Origin: a virus
Direction: 5' to 3' (one strand)
Length of the DNA: 64,000 nt
UHGV virus genome: UHGV-0134996
Shown here in pieces: positions 6,466-16,716 of the stretch (position 1 is the first letter of the stretch; each line of letters starts with the position of its first letter). The notes beneath the pieces are model-generated. The model did not search any database, was not told the origin of the DNA, and saw only the letters and a list, made by a program, of their open reading frames with translations. The position numbers were made by a program, and so were the translations under genes.

Positions 6466-6855
6466 TTAAATAACCGGACAATCATCAAATTCCCCACTTC
6501 GGGCATCATTGATGACATGAGTGATCACACCAAAAACAGCATTACTGCCCGTGTATCCATCGTCATCTACTGGTAACGCCTCTTTCTTCCCGGTGCTTAA
6601 GTCCTCCAGGTGCTGGCGCGGATACTTCCTGTATCTCTTTATGCGATATTCACCCTCCATAGCGCACACAAGCAGAGAACCATCAACCGGAGTAAGCGAG
6701 GAATCAACCACCAGCAAAGCACCCTGCAATATTCCCTCACGGTGATGGCTATCAGCTGCCCGCATGAAGTAGGTCGCTGAAGGATGTCTAATTATCTGCT
6801 GATCAAGAGAAATTCGGCTTTCAACATAATCCGCCGCAGGAGAAGGGAAGCCCAT
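6466..6855 (-). CDS. humD: UmuD-like S24 peptidase (HumD)
   Basis: 129 aa; GFPSPAADYVE...HPSATYF motif as in UmuD; no umuC partner. Confidence 0.85.
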   Translation of the reverse strand: MGFPSPAADYVESRISLDQQIIRHPSATYFMRAADSHHREGILQGALLVVDSSLTPVDGSLLVCAMEGEYRIKRYRKYPRQHLEDLSTGKKEALPVDDDGYTGSNAVFGVITHVINDARSGEFDDCPVI

Positions 6856-6873
6856 AGCGTTTTACCTCAATGA

Positions 6874-6893
6874 TACTGTTTATTCATACAGTA
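6874..6893. promoter_or_regulatory. LexA (SOS) box TACTGTTTATTCATACAGTA
   Basis: CTGT-N8-ACAG at 6876-6891, ~21 bp upstream of humD start. Confidence 0.8.
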
Positions 6894-6978
6894 TACATTG
6901 AAAAGGCATAGTTTGTGAAAGCGGGGTTTGTAGGCGCGCCACGCTGGGGGCTAATCACATTTCTCCCCCATCTTGCCG

Positions 6979-7230
6979 TTATTTTTTTGGTGCATCCTCG
7001 TTCTGATACACCGGATCGCTCCCTTTTGGCAACTGGAGGCTTAACTGCCGGTAGTGCCGTAGCCGTTCCATGAAATAGGCGCGCAGGTTTTCCGGTTGCT
7101 CACGGGCCACCTGCTCTGCAATCACAGGTATATTCAGCCGTTCTTTGTAAGCAACGCCGCTGGCGGCAAGGTCTACGTTCACCTTGTCTCGCTCTTCCTG
7201 GCTTTTAGCTGCTATATTTCGATCTGACAC
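6979..7230 (-). CDS. hot: Hot, homologue of DNA polymerase III theta subunit (HolE-like)
   Basis: 83 aa; [43 protein letters not shown] aligns with E. coli HolE. Confidence 0.8.
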
Positions 7231-7262
7231 AAGAAACCTCCAGGAGTTAGTGGATCAGGCAC

Positions 7263-7613
7263 ATGCACAATAACGTTCTCAATGTTAGCCGTTCAATTCA
7301 GACAATCAGAGACTGCACCAGTGTGGTGGCATCAATCCCGTTGCGGAACAGCATAGACGAACTGCAAATTCGTGTATTGAATCCGAATCAGGCTAATAAG
7401 CAATTGCGCTTTATTTTGACGCTGAAAAGTGAAACAGAGGGGATAAAGCACAGAGTAAAAGTGTTTTCTGAGGCCATTCTGCTTAATGGGAAGCTCCGGC
7501 ATCTGGTAAGGCCAGAACGTCAATATCCTGACGTCCTGGCGCGTGAAAAAGACCTTCTTTCTGAAGTTCAGGATAGGGTGATCGATTTCGTCAAATGCTA
7601 TCCCCTGCATTGA
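7263..7613 (+). CDS. Hypothetical protein (isolated plus-strand ORF; may be non-coding)
   Basis: 116 aa ORF, weak RBS, overlaps a minus-strand ORF. Confidence 0.2.
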   Translation: MHNNVLNVSRSIQTIRDCTSVVASIPLRNSIDELQIRVLNPNQANKQLRFILTLKSETEGIKHRVKVFSEAILLNGKLRHLVRPERQYPDVLAREKDLLSEVQDRVIDFVKCYPLH

Positions 7614-7882
7614 GGGCAGGTGTTCCCTTCCGCAAAGTAGGGAAAATTGCTATCAAGTTCATCACACCATCTGCGATGGTCGTAGCACCAAAACGCCTCC
7701 CACGGTGCACGGAAATACTTCATCCACCAGGACACTCGATCAGGTATATCTGCTGGTGGCAGTTCTTCTGGCAATAATTTGCCTGATAATTCCCTTTCCG
7801 CCCGCGACAGCATTTTTTTGAGGCTCGCGTTCTCTTTTTCAAGCTCATCTACGCGCACCTGTAATTCAGCTTTCGTTGGCAT
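7598..7882 (-). CDS. Hypothetical protein, Trp/Cys-rich C-terminus
   Basis: Start at MPTKAEL within 7598-7963 ORF. Confidence 0.35.
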   Translation of the reverse strand: MPTKAELQVRVDELEKENASLKKMLSRAERELSGKLLPEELPPADIPDRVSWWMKYFRAPWEAFWCYDHRRWCDELDSNFPYFAEGNTCPQCRG

Positions 7883-8546
7883 GGTCCACCTCATGCTTTT
7901 CAGCCACCAGCGGCAATAAAGCCCTGGCCATCTTATGAACCAATAGTGCATCAATAATGCCAAGCGTATGCCCCGGCTTAATGTTTAATGCCGCCTCAAG
8001 GCGACACCTTTCCAGGCCACTTTTCTCGGCTTGTTTATGATGATCTGGTGTAATAACGTCGCCCAAAACACGGCTAATTCTTTCTCGTAATTGCTGGGTG
8101 CCAGCACACTTGATCGCTGTATCGTGGAGACGGTTAACCAGTTCGCGATAAACATGCGGCTTAATTCGGATACGTTCACCGGTGACGCCCTTTCCTGGTG
8201 CTGGCACCGAACTATCCGGAATATCCGGATAGTTGCCAGCCTCGTAAGCTACCCGCAGCCAGTGCATGAATGTTTCAGTGGACACACAACCACAGTCCAC
8301 ATCGATTTTCCCGCGTTGCTGTTCCAGCCAATGCTCAAAATTCAATCTACACGTATTACTTTCATGTTGCTCTTTTTGTCTCAAGGCCAGCACCTGTTGG
8401 GCCAGTTCCAGAACGATACCGGGTGACGCTAACCTCTCAAATTCCAATAAATAGTTTGCGTCAGGATGACAAGTAGCCTCGCCTGCAAAAAATACCAATT
8501 GCTGTAAGTATGCTGTCGTTAGAGTAGTCATTTCTTTTTGCGCCAT
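7866..8546 (-). CDS. Hypothetical protein (island early-region gene)
   Basis: 226 aa ORF in minus-strand operon. Confidence 0.4.
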   Translation of the reverse strand: MAQKEMTTLTTAYLQQLVFFAGEATCHPDANYLLEFERLASPGIVLELAQQVLALRQKEQHESNTCRLNFEHWLEQQRGKIDVDCGCVSTETFMHWLRVAYEAGNYPDIPDSSVPAPGKGVTGERIRIKPHVYRELVNRLHDTAIKCAGTQQLRERISRVLGDVITPDHHKQAEKSGLERCRLEAALNIKPGHTLGIIDALLVHKMARALLPLVAEKHEVDHANES

Positions 8547-8902
8547 TTCTTTTCACATTCCTTAGTCCATTTTTCAATGTTCATTTTGGCAATATCAGTC
8601 ATTCCATCACCTAAGAAATACTTTTTCCGGTACGTCTTGCACTTAAACCACACTACAACAGCCACCAGCCAGAAAATAAAAGGCCATACGGCAATACCAA
8701 CTCCAGCCGCGATAAAGCCCAATATCCATAAATGAAGCTCTCCAACTTCTGTTTCCGGCAATATTCTTAAAGAATTAAACAGCAGGCTGAACGAATGGTC
8801 GTATGCATTGGCAGTATAAGACATGCAATCCATATAATTAAAGTCATAGCCTGCGGCTGCCGCCCATAATGGGCGGTCAAGAAAATGTTTTAGTGTCATC
8901 AT
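8528..8902 (-). CDS. Hypothetical membrane protein
   Basis: 124 aa, hydrophobic segments LWILGFIAAGVGIAVWPFIFWLVAVVVWF, basic C-terminus. Confidence 0.4.
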   Translation of the reverse strand: MMTLKHFLDRPLWAAAAGYDFNYMDCMSYTANAYDHSFSLLFNSLRILPETEVGELHLWILGFIAAGVGIAVWPFIFWLVAVVVWFKCKTYRKKYFLGDGMTDIAKMNIEKWTKECEKKWRKKK

Positions 8903-8908
8903 ATTAAT

Positions 8909-9202
8909 TTAAGGTTCAGACCAGTTATCTTCAATAGCAATGCTTAATCTTTGTAGCCATTCTGCTAATTTCAGCATTGCTTCTCTTTCGCTTAAACCAC
9001 ACGGAAAATCATCAAGCGATATTGTTGGCTTGAAGTTTCCCAAATTATCCATTTCAACGGTCAGATTTTGCTCCAGAACGGTATTTCTTACACGGCTATT
9101 GTGCCGAAGCAAATATACTGAACGTGATTTATTGGTTTTGTGGTCGAACGTATATTCGGTAAGTATCATCTGACTTCCTCCATGATTATTACCGCGCCAC
9201 AT
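8909..9202 (-). CDS. Hypothetical protein
   Basis: 97 aa ORF. Confidence 0.35.
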   Translation of the reverse strand: MWRGNNHGGSQMILTEYTFDHKTNKSRSVYLLRHNSRVRNTVLEQNLTVEMDNLGNFKPTISLDDFPCGLSEREAMLKLAEWLQRLSIAIEDNWSEP

Positions 9203-9225
9203 AATTACTCCGTGTTAATTGAAAT

Positions 9226-9528
9226 TTAGCTATTAATCTTCACTTTTATCGCGAACACCTTTACCGGTTTATCACCGAAGTGTGGTTGTGTGATTGTTTT
9301 TATTTCATATCCGTTATACGGGACGTCAATTCTGCGACTGAAGTCTTTGCGCTTCGGATATCCCTTTGTGATAATCAGGCGGTAATACTTACGGTTAACG
9401 AGGCGCTTATTCCAGTAGTCATTACACAGGCGATACTCTTCCGTTTTCTCCCCGCGAATCATGGCATCGAAGTATTCACCTTTAACGGCAAGTTGCAGGT
9501 TAGCCATTACCTCACCTCCAGTCTCCAT
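9226..9528 (-). CDS. ASCH/PUA-like small protein (DUF3850-like)
   Basis: 100 aa; LQLAVKGEYFDAMIRGEKTEEYR pattern. Confidence 0.4.
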   Translation of the reverse strand: METGGEVMANLQLAVKGEYFDAMIRGEKTEEYRLCNDYWNKRLVNRKYYRLIITKGYPKRKDFSRRIDVPYNGYEIKTITQPHFGDKPVKVFAIKVKINS

Positions 9529-9770
9529 ACCGCCTGACCAATCCGGCTGGCATGGGTATCTTTGGATACTGTTCCGTCTTTAGCCAGCTCCATAAGAATT
9601 TTGCGCAAATCTGCCGAACGCCATTCTTCATCAGGAAATGCCTTCTCCATTGCCAACCGCAGATTCCAGGTTGCCATCCTGAATGGATATTCCCCGCCGA
9701 GAGCTTTATCTTGCAGGGCAGCCCGGGAACGCATCACCTGCAAAACCTTCTCTTTTACATCCATCATTTC
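9507..9770 (-). CDS. Hypothetical protein
   Basis: Start chosen at internal MMDVKEK to limit overlap with upstream gene. Confidence 0.3.
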   Translation of the reverse strand, partial: EMMDVKEKVLQVMRSRAALQDKALGGEYPFRMATWNLRLAMEKAFPDEEWRSADLRKILMELAKDGTVSKDTHASRIGQAVWRLEVR

Positions 9771-10621
9771 GCCTCCTGCGGCGGTTCTGGTAGCGGCATC
9801 CAGAACAAGGCGTTCCCTAACCACGATAAAGTGCCGTCGCTCAACTCCACGTATTCCCCTTGTACCTGTCCTGCCATATACTCGCCGTGCTTTGAATAAA
9901 TTAAAATCCAATCATCTTGAGGGGGCATTCGCTCACTACAGCTTATCCAACCATCCGGAGTTACCGGAGAGTTGCCTGCCAGTCTACGCAAAACAGCCTT
10001 AACAGCCTCAATACGGTCATCATCGTAACTTTCCGCCGTATCTATGCGGTCGAGCATGATGATTGCGTTATCAATATCAGGATTGCCGGTCCACTCATTA
10101 CCGCGATTGGATTCGGCAGCCTGGTTGCCGCGTACTGGTTGATTGTCGGCTTTACCCAGTCTGTCGTCGCTGCATGAATGCCCTTCCAGCCAGGCCAATG
10201 CTTGTCGCATGAAATACGCAATATGTTTGCCGTGGTAATCGTCTTCATCGATGTGAAAAGCGATACTACGAATGTATTCAATTGCGTTTTCAATGGCCTC
10301 TAACGCTATCGGCGCTGGCGGAGTGGTATATAGTTTTCGACATTTGTATATCCAACCGGCATGGTCAGGCGTGTCTGTAAAACGCAAATCGTCTTCGTAG
10401 CACTCACGACTACGTTCTTTCCATTCCGTCCACGGAACACCGCTATTCCAGGTGGGGCGAGTGCAGGACTGATACAGAACAGGCTCTGCTTCCAGCGATG
10501 CCAGCACGATACGCGCCAGTTCTTCCGCTTCTTCTGCTGGCAGTACAACGTTGCTATCAGGTCCGTATGTTTCGCGCCACTGCTTGATTGTCAGCAGTCG
10601 CTCTTTGGTAATAGTGATCAT
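9764..10621 (-). CDS. DUF551-like protein (lambdoid ea-type)
   Basis: 285 aa; C-terminal W...SCSERMPP...W pattern. Confidence 0.45.
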   Translation of the reverse strand: MITITKERLLTIKQWRETYGPDSNVVLPAEEAEELARIVLASLEAEPVLYQSCTRPTWNSGVPWTEWKERSRECYEDDLRFTDTPDHAGWIYKCRKLYTTPPAPIALEAIENAIEYIRSIAFHIDEDDYHGKHIAYFMRQALAWLEGHSCSDDRLGKADNQPVRGNQAAESNRGNEWTGNPDIDNAIIMLDRIDTAESYDDDRIEAVKAVLRRLAGNSPVTPDGWISCSERMPPQDDWILIYSKHGEYMAGQVQGEYVELSDGTLSWLGNALFWMPLPEPPQEAK

Positions 10622-11133
10622 GCCGCGTTTCCTTCTTTCTTATTAACAATTACACCGTCATATATTTCATTAAGGTGCCCTCTCAACTCCATGCGCCTTA
10701 ATGCAGATAACATGTAATCGCATTCAACCTGCTTATTCCCAATAAAAGGTTTATCTTCAGGGTTACCCCAACAGCAATTACCCTTGGGCCACCCATGTAC
10801 TTTCCGTACTCTTCCGTTAACAACGTGAAGTAATCCCCAGCCAGGTGGTAAATCCTCAATTGAAATAATTCCCGGCTCACTAATAAAGAATCGCCAGTCG
10901 CCCATTCCAAGAGACGGATTTTTACGAAAACGCTTTTTTCTATCTGCCAACAAATCAGCACGAGAACACTTCGCCTCTATCAGGCATGATGCTGAATTTC
11001 TGAACCCCATAGCATCTGGCTGTTCTCCGGTACTGGTTACAGCTATAAAGCGGTCATGAAAACAAACCTTGAACCCGTTGCGCTTAAGGAACTTGTACGC
11101 AATCTGACAGAGTTCGCGGTGTGTTAACGCCAT
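10618..11133 (-). CDS. PD-(D/E)XK-type nuclease-like protein
   Basis: Start MALTHREL; D...EAK motif (DAMGFRNSASCLIEAKCSRAD). Confidence 0.4.
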   Translation of the reverse strand: MALTHRELCQIAYKFLKRNGFKVCFHDRFIAVTSTGEQPDAMGFRNSASCLIEAKCSRADLLADRKKRFRKNPSLGMGDWRFFISEPGIISIEDLPPGWGLLHVVNGRVRKVHGWPKGNCCWGNPEDKPFIGNKQVECDYMLSALRRMELRGHLNEIYDGVIVNKKEGNAA

Positions 11134-11134
11134 A

Positions 11135-11323
11135 TCACTCTCCTTTAGTGCGCAAATGGTTTTTCCAGCGGTTTTGCGCCGCGCTGGGCTTTTTGCAAAA
11201 ACCACAATCCATCATCCCGTAATATTTCATCAACCCCATCCGTCGGTTGCTGAGTCTCACCCACTGCCAGACGCCAGGAGCGTTTCTACGAACTAACAGA
11301 ATCTTTGCTTTACGGTTTTTCAT
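11135..11323 (-). CDS. Small protein, MKNRKAK paralogue B (62 aa)
   Basis: ATGA-coupled to upstream paralogue. Confidence 0.3.
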   Translation of the reverse strand: MKNRKAKILLVRRNAPGVWQWVRLSNRRMGLMKYYGMMDCGFCKKPSAAQNRWKNHLRTKGE

Positions 11324-11496
11324 CTTACTGCGTACCCTTTCTTCCGCCTGTTCTGTGACGCAGTAGGCTTACGCTTTGCGGCAAAAGCCACCTGACCAAA
11401 TGGATGGAGTACCGCTATCTTATGGTTGCTAATAACCAGCTCCACCACACGCACAGGTCGCTGTAAAAAAAGTCGTTTTGCCTTACGGTTTTTCAT
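11320..11496 (-). CDS. Small protein, MKNRKAK paralogue A (58 aa)
   Basis: Same first 7 codons as 11135-11323; ATGA overlaps on both sides. Confidence 0.3.
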   Translation of the reverse strand: MKNRKAKRLFLQRPVRVVELVISNHKIAVLHPFGQVAFAAKRKPTASQNRRKKGYAVR

Positions 11497-11588
11497 CGCT
11501 TTGCTCTCCTGCGTCTCTTTGCTGCTCGTCGTGCCGCTGCAATACCGGTATGGCGGCGCTTTGGTGCCGGGATGATGTTGTCAGCCAT
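11493..11588 (-). CDS. Arg-rich 31-aa peptide
   Basis: MADNIIPAPKRRHTGIAAARRAAKRRRRAKR; stop overlaps next ATG. Confidence 0.2.
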   Translation of the reverse strand: MADNIIPAPKRRHTGIAAARRAAKRRRRAKR

Positions 11589-11668
11589 CAGGACATGTGG
11601 CTTTGCAATTAGCGCAGAAGCCCAAAAACGAGTCGGGTACGGTAACAAGCCGATACATGCCACACGCA

Positions 11669-12424
11669 CTACTCACCTCCGTTGATGCGAATGCCAGCGG
11701 CACGGGAATCATTCCATCGCTTTACTTCTTCACGAATTACGTCAATGCATTCTTTCGAATCCATTAGGTAATCTTCATCAAAAAGCCTTTCCTGTTCGTT
11801 TTCTATCGCAACAATGATTGCTTCAACTAACTTTTGTGCCTGAGAACCACTTTCTAACTCTGCAATGCGCTTCTCTGCGGCTTCCAGCTTCTCGCGCATA
11901 TCGTCAACGTACTCGACCAGAGATCCGCCAGCAGGAATTTCGCACTCCTCGACCAGTTGGAAGTAGATATCAGCTGCGGCCCGTGTGTTGCTATGCCTAG
12001 CGTCGCCCATCTCACCTTCACGAAGAGCATCGCGTTCGGCGGTAAGATTGGCTATTTTGCTGTCTTTGCCTTCCAGCTCAACGCGAAGCCTCCCTACCGT
12101 TAGCGCAATTTCCTCGTTCTCCTGGTCACGGCGTTTGATGTATTGCTGGTTTCTTTCCAGTTCATCCAGTAATGCCGTCACGGTAGCTGGATTGGCTGCG
12201 GCGATGAATTCAGCATTGGCCTGCTGTTCTATTTGGAAATCTTCATCGAAACCGCTTTCAGGATGCGCTCCTTCAATTCTGCAAATGGGAATATATCCAG
12301 CAACCTCGCGATGAATTAGTGCATCATCACCATCAAATCGTCCCTCTCCATATTCGAGCGACCACACACCACACGTTGCTTTCTCTGCCTTTTCACGCAG
12401 TGCCTGATAGTCAATCTTGCTCAC
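11669..12424 (-). CDS. Ea22-like family protein (coiled coil)
   Basis: N-terminus MSKIDYQALREKAEKAT typical of lambdoid Ea22-like proteins. Confidence 0.6.
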   Translation of the reverse strand: MSKIDYQALREKAEKATCGVWSLEYGEGRFDGDDALIHREVAGYIPICRIEGAHPESGFDEDFQIEQQANAEFIAAANPATVTALLDELERNQQYIKRRDQENEEIALTVGRLRVELEGKDSKIANLTAERDALREGEMGDARHSNTRAAADIYFQLVEECEIPAGGSLVEYVDDMREKLEAAEKRIAELESGSQAQKLVEAIIVAIENEQERLFDEDYLMDSKECIDVIREEVKRWNDSRAAGIRINGGE

Positions 12425-13155
12425 TGGTTGCCTCCTTTGCGAAGCTGGGCAGCAAAGTCAACTAACCACTCAGTCATTTCAACCTTCCCTACCAGGTCTG
12501 AACCAGGGTGCATACAGCAATCACTCTGCGCCGCTTTGAAATCCTTATACTCATATTCTTGGGCCACCAGATTTTTTGCAGCTTCTATAGCAGCATCCAC
12601 CCCCTGCGCCCGGACTTCAGCCAAGAAAGCGTCGGTGGCTGACATATTTCCTGTTGCCTTCATGGCCTTCAAAATAACCAGAACGCCATCTCGCCCAACC
12701 ACCTCAGCGATAACCTCGGTGTTGTCGCCAACAACATCGCAGAATGCCTGAACTGCCTTACGAGCCAGCTCATTCTCCACTGCCAGCGCCGTGCGATTAC
12801 CCTCCAGCTCTGCAATGCGCTGTTTTGCGGCATCCAGTTCAATCGACAATTTTTCCAACTGCTCTTGATGCTTCTTGTATTCCTGATATGCGTGCCAAGA
12901 CTGACCTTTGCGCACACTATCAGTGATATCAGTAATCTGTTCTGGTGTTAGCGTGGTCAGTGGCTGTGATGGGAAAATAAGCACTTTCCCGGAATCCCAA
13001 TCAAAACCAGCGTGAATTGACTGAACCTCAACTGAAGGTGTTGAACCAATGCTGCCAGGCGAATGAACAACGATTGTTACATCCATATCGCGACGATGGC
13101 TGTGGTTGTTGGACAAAATACGATTCACCAACTCAGAAAATTTGGAAATTTTCAT
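12421..13155 (-). CDS. Ea22-related mosaic protein (shares C-terminal module with 13439-14149)
   Basis: C-terminal ATDAFLAEVRAQG...RKGGNQ parallels ATDAFLAEIRAEA...IRKGSSQ. Confidence 0.45.
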   Translation of the reverse strand: MKISKFSELVNRILSNNHSHRRDMDVTIVVHSPGSIGSTPSVEVQSIHAGFDWDSGKVLIFPSQPLTTLTPEQITDITDSVRKGQSWHAYQEYKKHQEQLEKLSIELDAAKQRIAELEGNRTALAVENELARKAVQAFCDVVGDNTEVIAEVVGRDGVLVILKAMKATGNMSATDAFLAEVRAQGVDAAIEAAKNLVAQEYEYKDFKAAQSDCCMHPGSDLVGKVEMTEWLVDFAAQLRKGGNQ

Positions 13156-13475
13156 GCTGATTCCCCTTTCTCTGCTCTCTCCTGTCGGAACATCACTATC
13201 ATCAGGTCGCCTTTTGTCGCTATCCTGGCTGTTGTACCTGGTTCAATGCGGCTAAGCTCAAATGCGTCATAGAACGCTTCTAATGCCTTCTGGCGTAGTT
13301 CCTGTTTGCGCCGTTTTTTCCACTGTTTTAGGAAAATGGAACCCAGCCATCGCCATGTGCGGGACATGATGTAAAGCCAACCGAGAAGTGCCAGACCGGT
13401 ATTTAGGAGCGTATCGATCGTTATTGTCGTGTCGATATTCACTGGCTGCTTCCTTTGCGAATCTGTTCCGCCCAT
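13152..13475 (-). CDS. Small membrane protein
   Basis: 107 aa, hydrophobic segment LNTGLALLGWLYIM. Confidence 0.3.
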   Translation of the reverse strand: MGGTDSQRKQPVNIDTTITIDTLLNTGLALLGWLYIMSRTWRWLGSIFLKQWKKRRKQELRQKALEAFYDAFELSRIEPGTTARIATKGDLMIVMFRQERAEKGESA

Positions 13476-14149
13476 TCTTCAAGGGATTTCTCCGCATATT
13501 CACCAGACAGGCCATCAATCGGATGCGCTTCATTAGCCAACTCTTCTTTCGCTGACAAAATCATGCGTGTAACGTCGAAAACTTCACGCAAAGACTTATT
13601 GATAAATCCGTGATTGAACGCAGCAGCAAGACGGCTGGCGGTATAGTTAATCCCCTCGTTGCGTGCTTCCGCACGAATTTCAGCCAGAAAAGCATCGGTA
13701 GCTGGAGTTTCGCTGTGGTGCAGGGCATCGTTGATAATCATTGCAGCAACTCCGGCCTGCCCTGCATCCGTGACCGACACATGATCAAGAGTTACAGCCA
13801 TTGCGAGTTTCAGCCCGGCGTTCTCTGCCACCAGAGCCGCGAGCTTAGTCTCAAGCGGTGCTATTCGGCACATAGCATCAATATTTGTGTCCTCCAGGCG
13901 CTTAATTTCGCCCAGGAGTGCCAGCGCAACTTTTGGTGGGATAGCCGCGATATAACGGGCATTAGCACCAGCATTCCTTTGCCCATCAATGCCAGGCCAG
14001 TCAATAAAGTATCCGCAATGCCTACCCTCAGACGTGCGCGCAGGATAAATGCCGTTATGACCCGGCAAAATATATGCTACCCATTCATCTTGCGTTGCCT
14101 GTTCCGCCGCCTCGCGCAGTTCTTGATAGTCAATTGTCATTCTCGCCAT
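13439..14149 (-). CDS. Ea22-like family protein
   Basis: N-terminus MARMTIDYQELREAAEQAT. Confidence 0.6.
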   Translation of the reverse strand: MARMTIDYQELREAAEQATQDEWVAYILPGHNGIYPARTSEGRHCGYFIDWPGIDGQRNAGANARYIAAIPPKVALALLGEIKRLEDTNIDAMCRIAPLETKLAALVAENAGLKLAMAVTLDHVSVTDAGQAGVAAMIINDALHHSETPATDAFLAEIRAEARNEGINYTASRLAAAFNHGFINKSLREVFDVTRMILSAKEELANEAHPIDGLSGEYAEKSLEEWAEQIRKGSSQ

Positions 14150-14781
14150 CCTTCACAGTTGTAATCACGACAGCCTTCAAAATCATATGGGCTGTACTGC
14201 CAGGTGATTTTTCCGCAATGCGGACAATTCCAACGCACCTTCCCGCTTCGCGACTTCTTTCTTCTGTTCTGCTTTTTCAACCAGTCAGGCATGATCAAAC
14301 CTGCGCCCTGAACCATTGTTCTGCGGTTAAAGTTATTGATATTGAACGTCCGGCGCTTTGCTGCATCAGCAATGGAAAATGGCAACCAAACTATTCCTGG
14401 TTCGTTTTTGTTGGCGACGCTAAAGATGGTCGCTTTACTGAAGTCATCTGTTGGCAATCCACCGTGTTGAAGCCAGTAAACATCGTTGCCGTTCCAGCTA
14501 CCTTTTTTGTAGGCCACATACGCAGTGCAATCTGACTCAATCAGGCTTTCTGTAGGGATGTACTGGCAATCAACGTGCCACACAGCCATTGCATCCACAC
14601 TATCGGCACAAACAGGCTGATCGATATCTCGCCCACAATTCCAGGCTTTTTGGGCTTCTTCCAGCGTGTAAACATGAGCGCGATCGATATCAGAACTGTA
14701 ACCATTGCCGTTATGGCAATGGAATGAGGCGTTATTACCCACAGTTTCACGCAAGCACATCATGTAAAAACGGTTACTCAC
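14137..14781 (-). CDS. Hypothetical protein with C-terminal zinc-ribbon-like Cys cluster
   Basis: 214 aa; RWNCPHCGKITW...CRDYNCEGW. Confidence 0.4.
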   Translation of the reverse strand: MSNRFYMMCLRETVGNNASFHCHNGNGYSSDIDRAHVYTLEEAQKAWNCGRDIDQPVCADSVDAMAVWHVDCQYIPTESLIESDCTAYVAYKKGSWNGNDVYWLQHGGLPTDDFSKATIFSVANKNEPGIVWLPFSIADAAKRRTFNINNFNRRTMVQGAGLIMPDWLKKQNRRKKSRSGKVRWNCPHCGKITWQYSPYDFEGCRDYNCEGWRE

Positions 14782-14989
14782 TGGATGCCTCCCAGCAAAT
14801 TTGTCTTATATAAGAACTGTTAACGCGCTTTACTTTCCCGTCGAACTCCAGTTTCTTTAGACGACGCAAAACGTATGCCGTTTTGAGTGTGCGATATTTA
14901 TCCCTAAGCCAGTTGGTCACGACGTAAGTCATACAGCGCCCGTGTTCTTCCAACACCCGAACTATTTCTTCGTCGGTTGGCTTGCTCAT
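14774..14989 (-). CDS. Small protein, possible winged-helix DNA-binding
   Basis: 71 aa. Confidence 0.3.
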   Translation of the reverse strand: MSKPTDEEIVRVLEEHGRCMTYVVTNWLRDKYRTLKTAYVLRRLKKLEFDGKVKRVNSSYIRQICWEASSE

Positions 14990-15207
14990 TTTGTCGCTCC
15001 TTCAGCTTTCTCTACTTTCGCTGCCATGATTTCCAGCTTTTGTGCTGCCGATGCCGCTAACCTGTGAAATTCTTCATCTGTTTCAACTGGAATTGGTACA
15101 AACCTGACACCAATTTGAGCAAGGCTATGCGCCATTTCGAGACTTGCTCTTAACTCTGCTGGGGATGCTTTATTCAGGCCGACTTCCTCACAAATAACTG
15201 ATTGCAT
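14986..15207 (-). CDS. Small hypothetical protein
   Basis: 73 aa. Confidence 0.3.
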   Translation of the reverse strand: MQSVICEEVGLNKASPAELRASLEMAHSLAQIGVRFVPIPVETDEEFHRLAASAAQKLEIMAAKVEKAEGATK

Positions 15208-15216
15208 ACGCTCGCC

Positions 15217-15942
15217 CTACTGAATACGCTCAAACTCGATTACCCAAACCCAGGGATTAGCGCTCCAGCTTTCTTCGCCGTAGATGGATTCCCACAGGCG
15301 CTGGAACGCAACCTTGGCCATTGCGAAATCCCCCTTGGGAGTAAGGAATGTTCCCGGGTGATCAGGAAGCAAACTTCCAGCAGGCGGAACACCCTCATCC
15401 CTTGCATCGCATTCGCTGATATCGTTCAACCGCTCAACGCGCACGTTGGTAATTTCCACCAGGATGCGTGATGCCCATCGCGGCATGTGAATTGATGGAC
15501 GCCACCCACCATCAAACTTTTCATTCACAGTGTGAGGTTTCCAGTCGGCATCATCGGGTATCGACCATAAACCGTAATCACCAGGCTTTTGCTCACAACT
15601 GGCCCGATAAATCCTTGCTGCGTTCTTCTCATCGCCACGACAAAGGTTGTCGTTCCAGTCCACACTGCAACCATCTTCATTGCCTAATATCGCCCATGTT
15701 TCACGAACCCAAATTCGATCGCCGACGATACCAAAGGGGCAATTGAAAACACTGCTTACACCATCAGCCCCGTACCACTGAAAACCTGCACCAATTTTTC
15801 TAATCATCACTGGTGCTTCTGGACCAACTTCCGCAGGCTGATTTTTCATTATCCGCCGCGTCTGCGTTTTCCTTCCTTCGAGGATGGCTCGGACCATCTC
15901 ATCGTTGAAAATCATGCCGCGCTCTTTCACTTCGCCTTTCAT
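15217..15942 (-). CDS. Hypothetical protein, ASCH-like N-terminus
   Basis: 241 aa; MIFNDEMVRAILEGRKTQTRR; an upstream 28-codon hydrophobic ORF at ~15950-16036 may be coupled. Confidence 0.45.
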   Translation of the reverse strand: MKGEVKERGMIFNDEMVRAILEGRKTQTRRIMKNQPAEVGPEAPVMIRKIGAGFQWYGADGVSSVFNCPFGIVGDRIWVRETWAILGNEDGCSVDWNDNLCRGDEKNAARIYRASCEQKPGDYGLWSIPDDADWKPHTVNEKFDGGWRPSIHMPRWASRILVEITNVRVERLNDISECDARDEGVPPAGSLLPDHPGTFLTPKGDFAMAKVAFQRLWESIYGEESWSANPWVWVIEFERIQ

Positions 15943-16120
15943 GCATCCCCCTTACCCATGCGCGACGATGCCGCCAAAAGTGATAGAGAACAGCCAGAAA
16001 TAGATCGCGGCCATAATGATTTTGAATGCCGTGTTCATATTTTCAGCTCCTGTGATTGATTGGATACATGCCGCGCCTTGCGGCATGTTTTTATTTTCAC
16101 TTTCTCTGTTTTAAAAATCA

Positions 16121-16137
16121 AGATTTATTAGAGCAAT
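16121..16137 (-). promoter_or_regulatory. C1 operator-like 17-mer (16/17)
   Basis: Plus strand agatttattagagcaat; overlaps stop codon of HAD gene. Confidence 0.65.
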
Positions 16138-16643
16138 TACTGTTGATGGAGAAGCGCGTTTTCATACTCCCTGACCATTAACGTAAGTACGCCGTGACTC
16201 CTGAAAACACGCGCCACTTCAATCTTATCTTCCAGCGCGAACGCGATTTTACTTAGACCAATTTTCTTAAGGAGAGCAATCTTTGCTGGGCCGTCATTTC
16301 TGTCATCGGTGGCAGGACGCATAGATAGCAAAGGCTCAGCCCCGTTTGTTACGTGCTTACGCAACCAGGCTCGTGTTTTATCCCTGGCTATCTCACAGCG
16401 CCCGGTTACAAACCAGACCGTGTAAACGTTAAATAACTGGCGCACCATATCAATAACTGGAGTGATGGGAGCATCAGTGTCACAGGCAAGGTTAAACTCG
16501 TTCCAGTGCTCTGTTAATGCACCTTTGCCAGGTGGTGGAAGCAAATGCAGCCTGTCTTCCGTTGCCTCTGATATCGTCCCATCAATATCGACTATGACGA
16601 TATACGGACGTTCCTGGTGTGCGTGTTTATTGAAAATACTCAA
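16137..16643 (-). CDS. HAD-superfamily phosphatase-like protein
   Basis: 168 aa; motif I IVIVDIDGTIS. Confidence 0.6.
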   Translation of the reverse strand: MSIFNKHAHQERPYIVIVDIDGTISEATEDRLHLLPPPGKGALTEHWNEFNLACDTDAPITPVIDMVRQLFNVYTVWFVTGRCEIARDKTRAWLRKHVTNGAEPLLSMRPATDDRNDGPAKIALLKKIGLSKIAFALEDKIEVARVFRSHGVLTLMVREYENALLHQQ

Positions 16644-16716
16644 ATGCCCTCCTCATTGGACGAAAAAAATGCTGGTGGGACGCACTCCACCAGCATTAAA
16701 AGTGACACTGTAACTA

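Follow-up and report, generated by a model that had tools for sequence, protein, structure and literature searches.

Predicted small basic protein genes with overlapping stop/start junctions and an old tandem duplication in a probable lambdoid-type early operon of a P1-like phage-plasmid

Genes that are coupled in translation through ATGA or TGATG junctions are known from the E. coli trp operon and the nin region of phage lambda. In the exo-xis module of lambdoid phages, small early genes are tightly packed, those downstream of ea22 differ in number and type and include complete or partial duplicates, and the region affects the lysis-lysogeny decision in Stx phages (PMC8614690). The locus described here lies in a 64,000-nucleotide (64-kb) stretch of the virus genome UHGV-0134996, referred to as the window, in whose positions all coordinates are given. 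It is a chain of genes, all on the minus strand, in which transcription runs from an Ea22-like gene through three short open reading frames (ORFs), ORF-A, ORF58 and ORF62, to a gene for a 171-amino-acid (aa) protein of predicted PD-(D/E)XK fold and a DUF551/EaA-like gene. It is likely that the three short frames are real genes of small basic proteins, that ORF58 and ORF62 are an old pair of paralogues, and that the genes are translated by coupling and form recombining arrays within an early operon of lambdoid type. A preliminary description had recognized a chain of overlapping small ORFs between the Ea22-like and PD-(D/E)XK-like genes; the sequence and a table of the junctions bear this out, and several particulars are revised below.

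The relation to the exo-xis module can be seen in phage 933W, where the order is gam-bet-exo-L0072-L0071-L0070-L0069 (Ea22-like)-(ORF-A)-L0068 (ORF62 homologue)-L0067...xis-int. In 933W the homologues are thus part of the leftward early operon, after ea22 and within the interval from exo to xis. The region in the window is probably a long early accessory operon of this lambdoid "exo-xis / ea" type, carried here on a P1-like phage-plasmid and not on an integrated lambdoid prophage. The locus differs further in that no sequence relation of the small proteins to characterized members of the module was found (no Pfam match), and in that the window proteins are far more basic.

Evidence that the three frames are coding comes from 215 related loci in IMG/VR, which reduce to 107 distinct contexts and 83 distinct DNA sequences of the family to which ORF58 and ORF62 belong, designated MKNRKAK after its first residues. 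A lack of conservation in related elements and of codon-level constraint had been named beforehand as grounds for discarding the frames; they are instead kept in these loci, and the ratio of nonsynonymous to synonymous differences per site (pN/pS) is 0.10–0.26. For ORF-A as a whole the ratio is 0.26 in frame versus 3.76 and 0.84 in the other two same-strand frames; the corresponding values are 0.21 versus 0.71 and 1.97 for the ORF62 type, and 0.10 versus 3.6 and 8.1 for the ORF58 type. Pairwise ratios of nonsynonymous to synonymous substitution rates (dN/dS) across the MKNRKAK family are 0.26–0.38. Codon-level comparison shows ORF-A, ORF58 and ORF62 to be real, selected protein-coding genes.

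The alternative that these frames are spacer DNA or remnants, whose conserved ends act as recombination linkers or as ribosome-binding sites for the neighbours, draws on several features of the locus. The ends of the family are far better conserved than the middle, with pN/pS of 0.11 in the N-terminal nine codons and 0.31 in the C-terminal block versus 0.71 in between. The 3′ end carries the Shine-Dalgarno sequence and start of the next gene and is an exact mosaic joint, the "KG/EG" C-terminal tails of many operon genes mirror embedded Shine-Dalgarno sequences, and ORF-A and ORF58 are unannotated by RefSeq/PGAP in an identical plasmid. However, pS at the ends (0.40–0.46) is close to that of the middle (0.56), and the ends are therefore not simply homogenized DNA. 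Residues that are invariant in the family are written with differing synonymous codons, as in R53 with CGC, AGG or AGA; the frames are held open at 58–64 aa across about 50% protein divergence, and even the middle retains a QW.R[IL]SNRR motif. With in-frame ratios of 0.10–0.26 set against 0.7–8 in the other same-strand frames, a non-coding origin is distinctly improbable. The same codon comparisons show the conserved N- and C-terminal peptide motifs to be held by selection on the protein.

ORF-A (11493..11669), immediately downstream of the Ea22-like gene, encodes a basic protein of 58 aa with an isoelectric point (pI) of 12.0 and a net charge of about +14. The protein has a hydrophobic N-terminus, MRVACIGLLPYP.RFW, and an Arg-rich C-terminal tail, TGIAAARRAAKRRRRAKR, and matches phrog_13831 over its full length (E 8.6e-42). 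The preliminary description placed here an Arg-rich peptide of 31 aa, starting at an internal ATG (Met28 of ORF-A, 11586..11588). An Arg-rich coding sequence is indeed present, but the 31 residues are the C-terminal half of the 58-aa product, whose GTG or ATG start lies at the Ea22 stop. The start codon occupies the same position in 33 distinct relatives, as ATG in 22 and GTG in 11, and the internal Met is missing or removed in frame in several homologues. Moreover, the 26 codons ahead of the internal ATG are themselves constrained, with a pN/pS of 0.18 in frame versus 2.5 and 3.1 in the other same-strand frames. The first small gene is now taken to begin at the codon overlapping the Ea22 stop, and the end formerly given to the chain, 11660, is 9 nt short of that start.

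The five junctions of the chain read, in order, TAGTG, ATGA, ATGA, TGAtATG and ATGA. At 11667..11671 one base is common to the TAG that ends the Ea22-like gene and the GTG that begins ORF-A, with the Shine-Dalgarno sequence GGAGGTGAG ahead; relatives have TAATG or TAGTG at this place. The ORF-A stop overlaps the ORF58 start at 11493..11496, with an AGGAG Shine-Dalgarno sequence 9 nt upstream, and the ORF58 stop overlaps the ORF62 start at 11320..11323. The ATGA links previously proposed throughout hold for these two 4-nt overlaps, but not for the passage from ORF62 to the nuclease-like gene, which is TGAtATG with a 1-nt spacer (11131..11137) and an AAGGAG Shine-Dalgarno sequence within the last ORF62 codons. 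The last overlap, of the 171-aa gene stop with the DUF551/EaA start, is again ATGA (10618..10621). Shine-Dalgarno sequences (GGAGG, AGGAG or AAGGAG) lie 7–11 nt ahead of four of the five starts, inside the upstream ORF; at the ORF58 to ORF62 junction only a weak GAAAGGG is present. In the operon the final codons of an upstream gene contain the Shine-Dalgarno sequence of the next one, and this accounts for the recurrent K-G and E-G protein tails. From the DUF1382 gene to the ASCH gene, 10 of 13 junctions overlap, by 1, 4 or 8 nt, eight of them being 4-nt ATGA/GTGA overlaps; ATGA chaining is thus a rule of the whole operon and not peculiar to the small ORFs.

Such overlapping or abutting stop/start sites, Shine-Dalgarno sequences within upstream coding sequence and long single-operon chains are features of translationally coupled genes. 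The region would be transcribed as one polycistronic early message, and each small ORF would be translated through re-initiation by ribosomes terminating at the stop/start sites. On the minus strand, scans for promoters and terminators detected neither a promoter-like site nor a strong terminator-like one between 9226 and 15942. Over 6800..16700, sigma-70 promoter-like sites are depleted, with 4 found versus 12.2 +/- 3.0 in shuffles, and this depletion is consistent with selection against internal promoters in a long polycistronic operon. When folded, the RNAs of the five junctions were not unusually stable (z from -0.81 to +1.51), and a model of coupling by structural occlusion is therefore unsupported; the junctions differ in this respect from coupled genes with occluding RNA structure. 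An Rfam scan of 9000..13000 gave no match at E<=1.

Two further observations concern the junctions of the operon. Near 13439, 12421, 11669 and 11135, four unrelated genes finish in near-identical DNA, TTCGCA(A/T)(A/C)A..GGAGG.., with the tails IRKGSSQ, LRKGGNQ, IRINGGE and LRTKGE directly before their stops, a likeness that goes past the Shine-Dalgarno sequence itself. These ends look like a recurrent junction cassette and could be a recombination linker. The DUF1382 gene (14986–15177) starts with CTG by RefSeq coordinates, possibly a mis-set start, and is the sole operon gene with a gap to its upstream neighbour, of 39 nt.

ORF58 (11320..11496; 58 aa, pI 12.0) and ORF62 (11135..11323; 62 aa, pI 11.3) are the first and second MKNRKAK-family copies of the chain. 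Both begin with ATGAAAAACCGTAA and encode MKNRKAK. The 20-nt start pattern ATGAAAAACCGTAARGCAAA occurs exactly twice in the window versus 0 times in 100 shuffles, as ATGAAAAACCGTAAGGCAAA at 11477..11496 (codons 1–7) and as ATGAAAAACCGTAAAGCAAA at 11304..11323. The common start seen earlier is therefore present, but the two ORFs do not simply diverge after codon 7, as had been thought: a BLASTP alignment spans 54 residues with 37% identity (E 5e-10), and a second common block, K(P)[ST]A[AS]QNR[WR]K, lies near the C-terminus. ORF58 and ORF62 are full-length paralogues produced by an old tandem duplication. A tandem duplication had been proposed before, as a recent one, and the paralogy stands while its recency does not. 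A recent event followed by rapid degeneration of the rest of one copy would fit the 19 of 20 bases that are identical at the two starts, 173 nt apart, and the division of the related loci into about half with one copy and about half with two. Against it, the two genes have only 53% nucleotide identity, with pN 0.41 and a saturated pS of 0.69, from which the duplication is judged old. Even the seven shared codons differ at two synonymous positions, with no replacement (pS 0.60, pN 0), so that the common start is kept by selection on the peptide and not by recency. In addition, purifying selection acts on both copies separately, and the ORF58 type is a conserved lineage found ahead of 62-, 63-, 60- and 61-aa types and occurring itself in the diverged forms P0198 and P0204. 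A recent duplication is, on these grounds, very improbable.

The family follows the pattern M[KN]NRKA[KR]-hLh...QW.R[IL]SN[RH][RK]...K.SA[AS]QNR[WR]KNH. Three motifs, [KN]NRKA[KR], a central [IV]SN[RH][RK] and a C-terminal SA[AS]QNR[WR]K, are borne by both ORF58 and ORF62 and held in distant members, and both proteins match phrog_1380 over the whole profile (E 1e-40 for ORF62 and 6.5e-23 for ORF58). A search of 5.8 billion proteins gave 61 relatives; where their source is named, it is nearly always Escherichia or Salmonella. Among 1.84 billion cluster representatives, a profile search gave 50 clusters only and no informative remote homologue; two long profile matches, P0210 and P0214, were considered as remote relatives and rejected as repetitive unrelated sequences. 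The family is tiny and confined to enterobacterial phages. Escherichia phage Av-05 (121 kb) encodes a 69-aa relative (BFVD A0A076G5Z6, 47% identity) and has a 47-nt match to ORF-A at NC_025830.1 73046–73092. Since Av-05 is judged from its genome size to be neither lambdoid nor P1-like, it seems that the spread of the small genes is not limited to phages of those two kinds.

Copies of the family occur singly or in arrays of two or three, and every complete array has the 4-nt ATGA overlap between copies. The chain types found in related loci, given by copy length in aa, are 62, 58|62, 63, 58|63, 60|63 and 58|60|63. A copy that is followed by another ends in ...QNRRKKGYAVR, and ORF58 shows this internal-copy tail as ...SQNRRKKGYAVR. 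The last copy of an array ends in ...QNRWKNHLRTKGE, followed by TGAnATG; the last-copy tail of ORF62 is ...AAQNRWKNHLRTKGE. The TGAnATG joint is conserved while the sequence downstream of it differs among loci, with at least 12 kinds of gene following. Among 104 distinct contexts, the PD-(D/E)XK gene follows in 37 and a 69-aa Cys-rich gene (933W L0067-like) in about 40, and at least 10 other kinds make up the rest. Chimeric database proteins give evidence of recombination within the ORF: in P0035 the ORF62 N-terminus is fused to DUF4014, and in P0219 an unrelated body carries the ORF62 tail. The comparison thus shows a mosaic joint at a gene boundary and a copy number of one to three. Homologous recombination in the conserved ends, about 21 nt on the 5′ side and about 60 nt on the 3′ side, probably alters both the copy number and the variable middle, and the fixed ...AAAGGAGAGTGAnATG end would act as a mosaic joint ahead of many different downstream genes, a role that the loci partly demonstrate.

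The gene behind the joint in the window, at 10618..11133, is an intact ORF of 171 codons whose product is MmcB/SPO1766-like. The earlier PD-(D/E)XK-like assignment is supported by the fold and by the catalytic motif. The AlphaFold2 model is confident (predicted local distance difference test, pLDDT, 85) and has the core alpha-beta-beta-beta-alpha-beta fold of the superfamily, and E37 and D40 (GEQPD) and E53-A-K55 (IEAK) are invariant in 29 homologues. No Pfam match was obtained for the window protein at E<=1; sub-threshold Hjc matches were obtained for 11 of the 29 homologues (best E 0.008), and a PDB profile match to 3dnx has an E of 0.2. The protein aligns with MmcB-like SPO1766 (PDB 3dnx) through the common motif D...(I/L)E.K.SR.DF.AD, yet at 23% identity only, and differs by an extra C-terminal helical part. 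A predicted PD-(D/E)XK-fold, nuclease-like protein is therefore supported, with no curated sequence family reaching threshold.

The close junction raises the question of whether ORF62 and the nuclease-like gene form a functional pair, either as one gene split by a frameshift or as a small inhibitor or antitoxin with its nuclease. The two ORFs are 1 nt apart, the nuclease-like gene is among the commonest downstream partners, PGAP calls the 5′ part of its ORF "frameshifted", and phrog_9263 (230 aa) aligns with ORF62 at 1–61 and with the nuclease-like protein at 62–230. On the other hand, the 171-aa ORF is complete; its alignment with 28 homologues, which come from many Enterobacterales and each have a start of their own, is gap-free, and the N-terminally extended database forms use an alternative frame of ORF62 and not ORF62 itself. 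On this evidence a single frameshifted gene was rejected. The Cys-rich gene follows the family about equally often, and at least ten other genes stand behind the same joint; obligate co-occurrence, as of a toxin-antitoxin or inhibitor pair, is not seen, and no PADLOC or toxin-antitoxin model was matched. Because so many interchangeable genes follow the joint, the nuclease-like gene is not a dedicated partner of ORF62, and a functional pair is quite unlikely.

Several points weigh against the reading of the locus as three genes translated by coupling, with nucleic-acid-binding products. The antisense frame whose wobble positions coincide with those of the sense frame has equally low pN/pS, 0.27 and 0.08, and the ratio alone cannot exclude an antisense gene. 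If a gene or RNA on the plus strand were the cause of the conservation, however, the frame should hardly be interrupted as it is in the window, where an internal stop breaks it into pieces of 33 and 39 codons that have no ATG and only GTG or TTG starts. In the 63-type group pN/pS is 0.98 antisense versus 0.46 sense. The plus strand also lacks a notable promoter or terminator in the scans, the sense junction RNAs fold ordinarily (z -0.8 to +1.5), and Rfam offered no RNA family, all of which makes a plus-strand cause exceedingly improbable. The second point concerns coupling, which is the most likely mode of translation of the small ORFs and is read here from the geometry of the junctions. Third, in the variants P0054 and P0060 the reading frame shifts within the middle of ORF62 and is later restored, and the middle therefore tolerates large changes in rare copies. 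Finally, the AlphaFold2 model of ORF62, a helix, three strands and a helix built from an 18-sequence alignment, is weak (pLDDT 66; predicted template modelling score, pTM, 0.34). A Foldseek search of it against viral models returned only the family member from phage Av-05, so that no fold is assigned, and scans of the three small ORFs with Pfam, NCBIfam and PADLOC gave no matches, which leaves the proposal of nucleic-acid binding without direct support.

In P0054 and P0060 the off-frame middle reads …VGETQQPTDGVNETLRDDGLWF… and is followed by the normal C-terminus. The frameshifted database forms also include P0215, and some of them run on into the next gene. Compensated and uncompensated frameshift alleles of ORF62 may be the source of fusion families such as phrog_9263.

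The three small proteins have pI values of 11.3–12.0 and net charges of +13.6 to +14.7. As judged from the early-operon position, the high charge (about +14) and the Arg-rich ORF-A tail, the most likely activity that we infer is nucleic-acid binding, and it would be exerted during early phage development or host takeover. Arg-rich-motif peptides such as lambda N and HK022 Nun offer a comparison that is compositional and serves as a lead only. Like them, the small proteins are short products of an early operon; the tail of ORF-A (RRAAKRRRRAKR) could form an Arg-rich helix, and the MKNRKAK proteins combine a basic N-terminus with a basic C-terminal helix that holds a conserved Trp. They differ in that no homology is detected and in that the motif of ORF-A is C-terminal, not N-terminal; no profile match to N-like families was obtained in Pfam, NCBIfam or PHROGs. 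A further proposal, to which we give a low probability, is that the MKNRKAK proteins, and perhaps ORF-A, are previously undescribed basic early effectors of about 60 aa. Their invariant basic N- and C-terminal motifs would dock on a conserved nucleic acid or a host machine (RNA polymerase, ribosome, RNA). Specificity, as might be needed in an arms race with the defences of the host, would lie in the variable cores, discrete cassettes that recombination in the conserved ends exchanges and multiplies.

The chain is headed by the Ea22-like gene (11669..12424), which has a GTG start and encodes 251 aa. Its product matches Pfam PF13935 (Ead_Ea22) with an E of 6.7e-30 and 104.9 bits, above the gathering cut-off of 27, and is RefSeq WP_046644553.1 in a 100% identical plasmid. 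The next gene after the nuclease-like one is the DUF551/EaA-like gene (9764..10621; 285 aa; Pfam DUF551 E 2.5e-10), called "EaA protein" in MH422554. Lambdoid exo-xis/ea-type content extends over about 7600–15942 of the minus strand, with two Ea22-like genes, DUF1382, DUF4752, DUF551/EaA and ASCH. The 244-aa hypothetical and 233-aa Ea22-like proteins encoded in 12421–14140 have a common C-terminal segment (...ATDAFLAE[IV]RA...). Since two Ea22-like paralogues are present, the operon contains partial gene duplications in addition to the MKNRKAK pair.

The 95.6-kb P1-like plasmid pMTY1887 matches the stretch at 100% identity and has phd/doc, humD, hot, c1 and ban close by; the window element is itself a P1-like phage-plasmid with phd/doc, humD, hot, ban, c1 and tRNAs. 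The module lies between a 3′-phosphatase gene and a DNA polymerase III theta-subunit gene of this element, which we take to be phage P1 pap and hot. Stx/lambdoid phages and phage-plasmids have here clearly exchanged a module.

ORF62 is annotated as WP_000797279.1 in a 100% identical plasmid, and ORF-A and ORF58 as WP_001261538.1 and WP_000797289.1 in a 99.5% identical one. These three RefSeq proteins, phrog_1380 and phrog_13831 all carry the label "unknown function" or "hypothetical protein". No account of the motif structure, tandem copy-number variation or codon constraint reported here was found in the searchable literature. RefSeq/PGAP omits ORF-A and ORF58 in the identical plasmid, and both are annotated in plasmid pTB-nb1. 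It is likewise inconsistent on the identical NZ_CP128965.1 52005–52651 (window 9764–11133), where the first 179 nt of the intact 171-aa ORF are called a "frameshifted" pseudogene and the intact 285-aa DUF551/EaA ORF is divided into a partial pseudogene and a 54-aa protein.

The small genes are real but ordinary, catalogued hypothetical genes in a known type of phage accessory operon, and nothing here would surprise a phage specialist. The result is mainly a clean-up: three tiny frames that annotation pipelines handle inconsistently are, by their codon constraint, real selected genes. In view of the influence of the exo-xis region on lysis and lysogeny (PMC8614690), the MKNRKAK family is a reasonable candidate for functional tests. 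The fixed TGAnATG joint, with swappable genes behind it, shows neatly how mosaic exchange can take place precisely where one gene meets the next.

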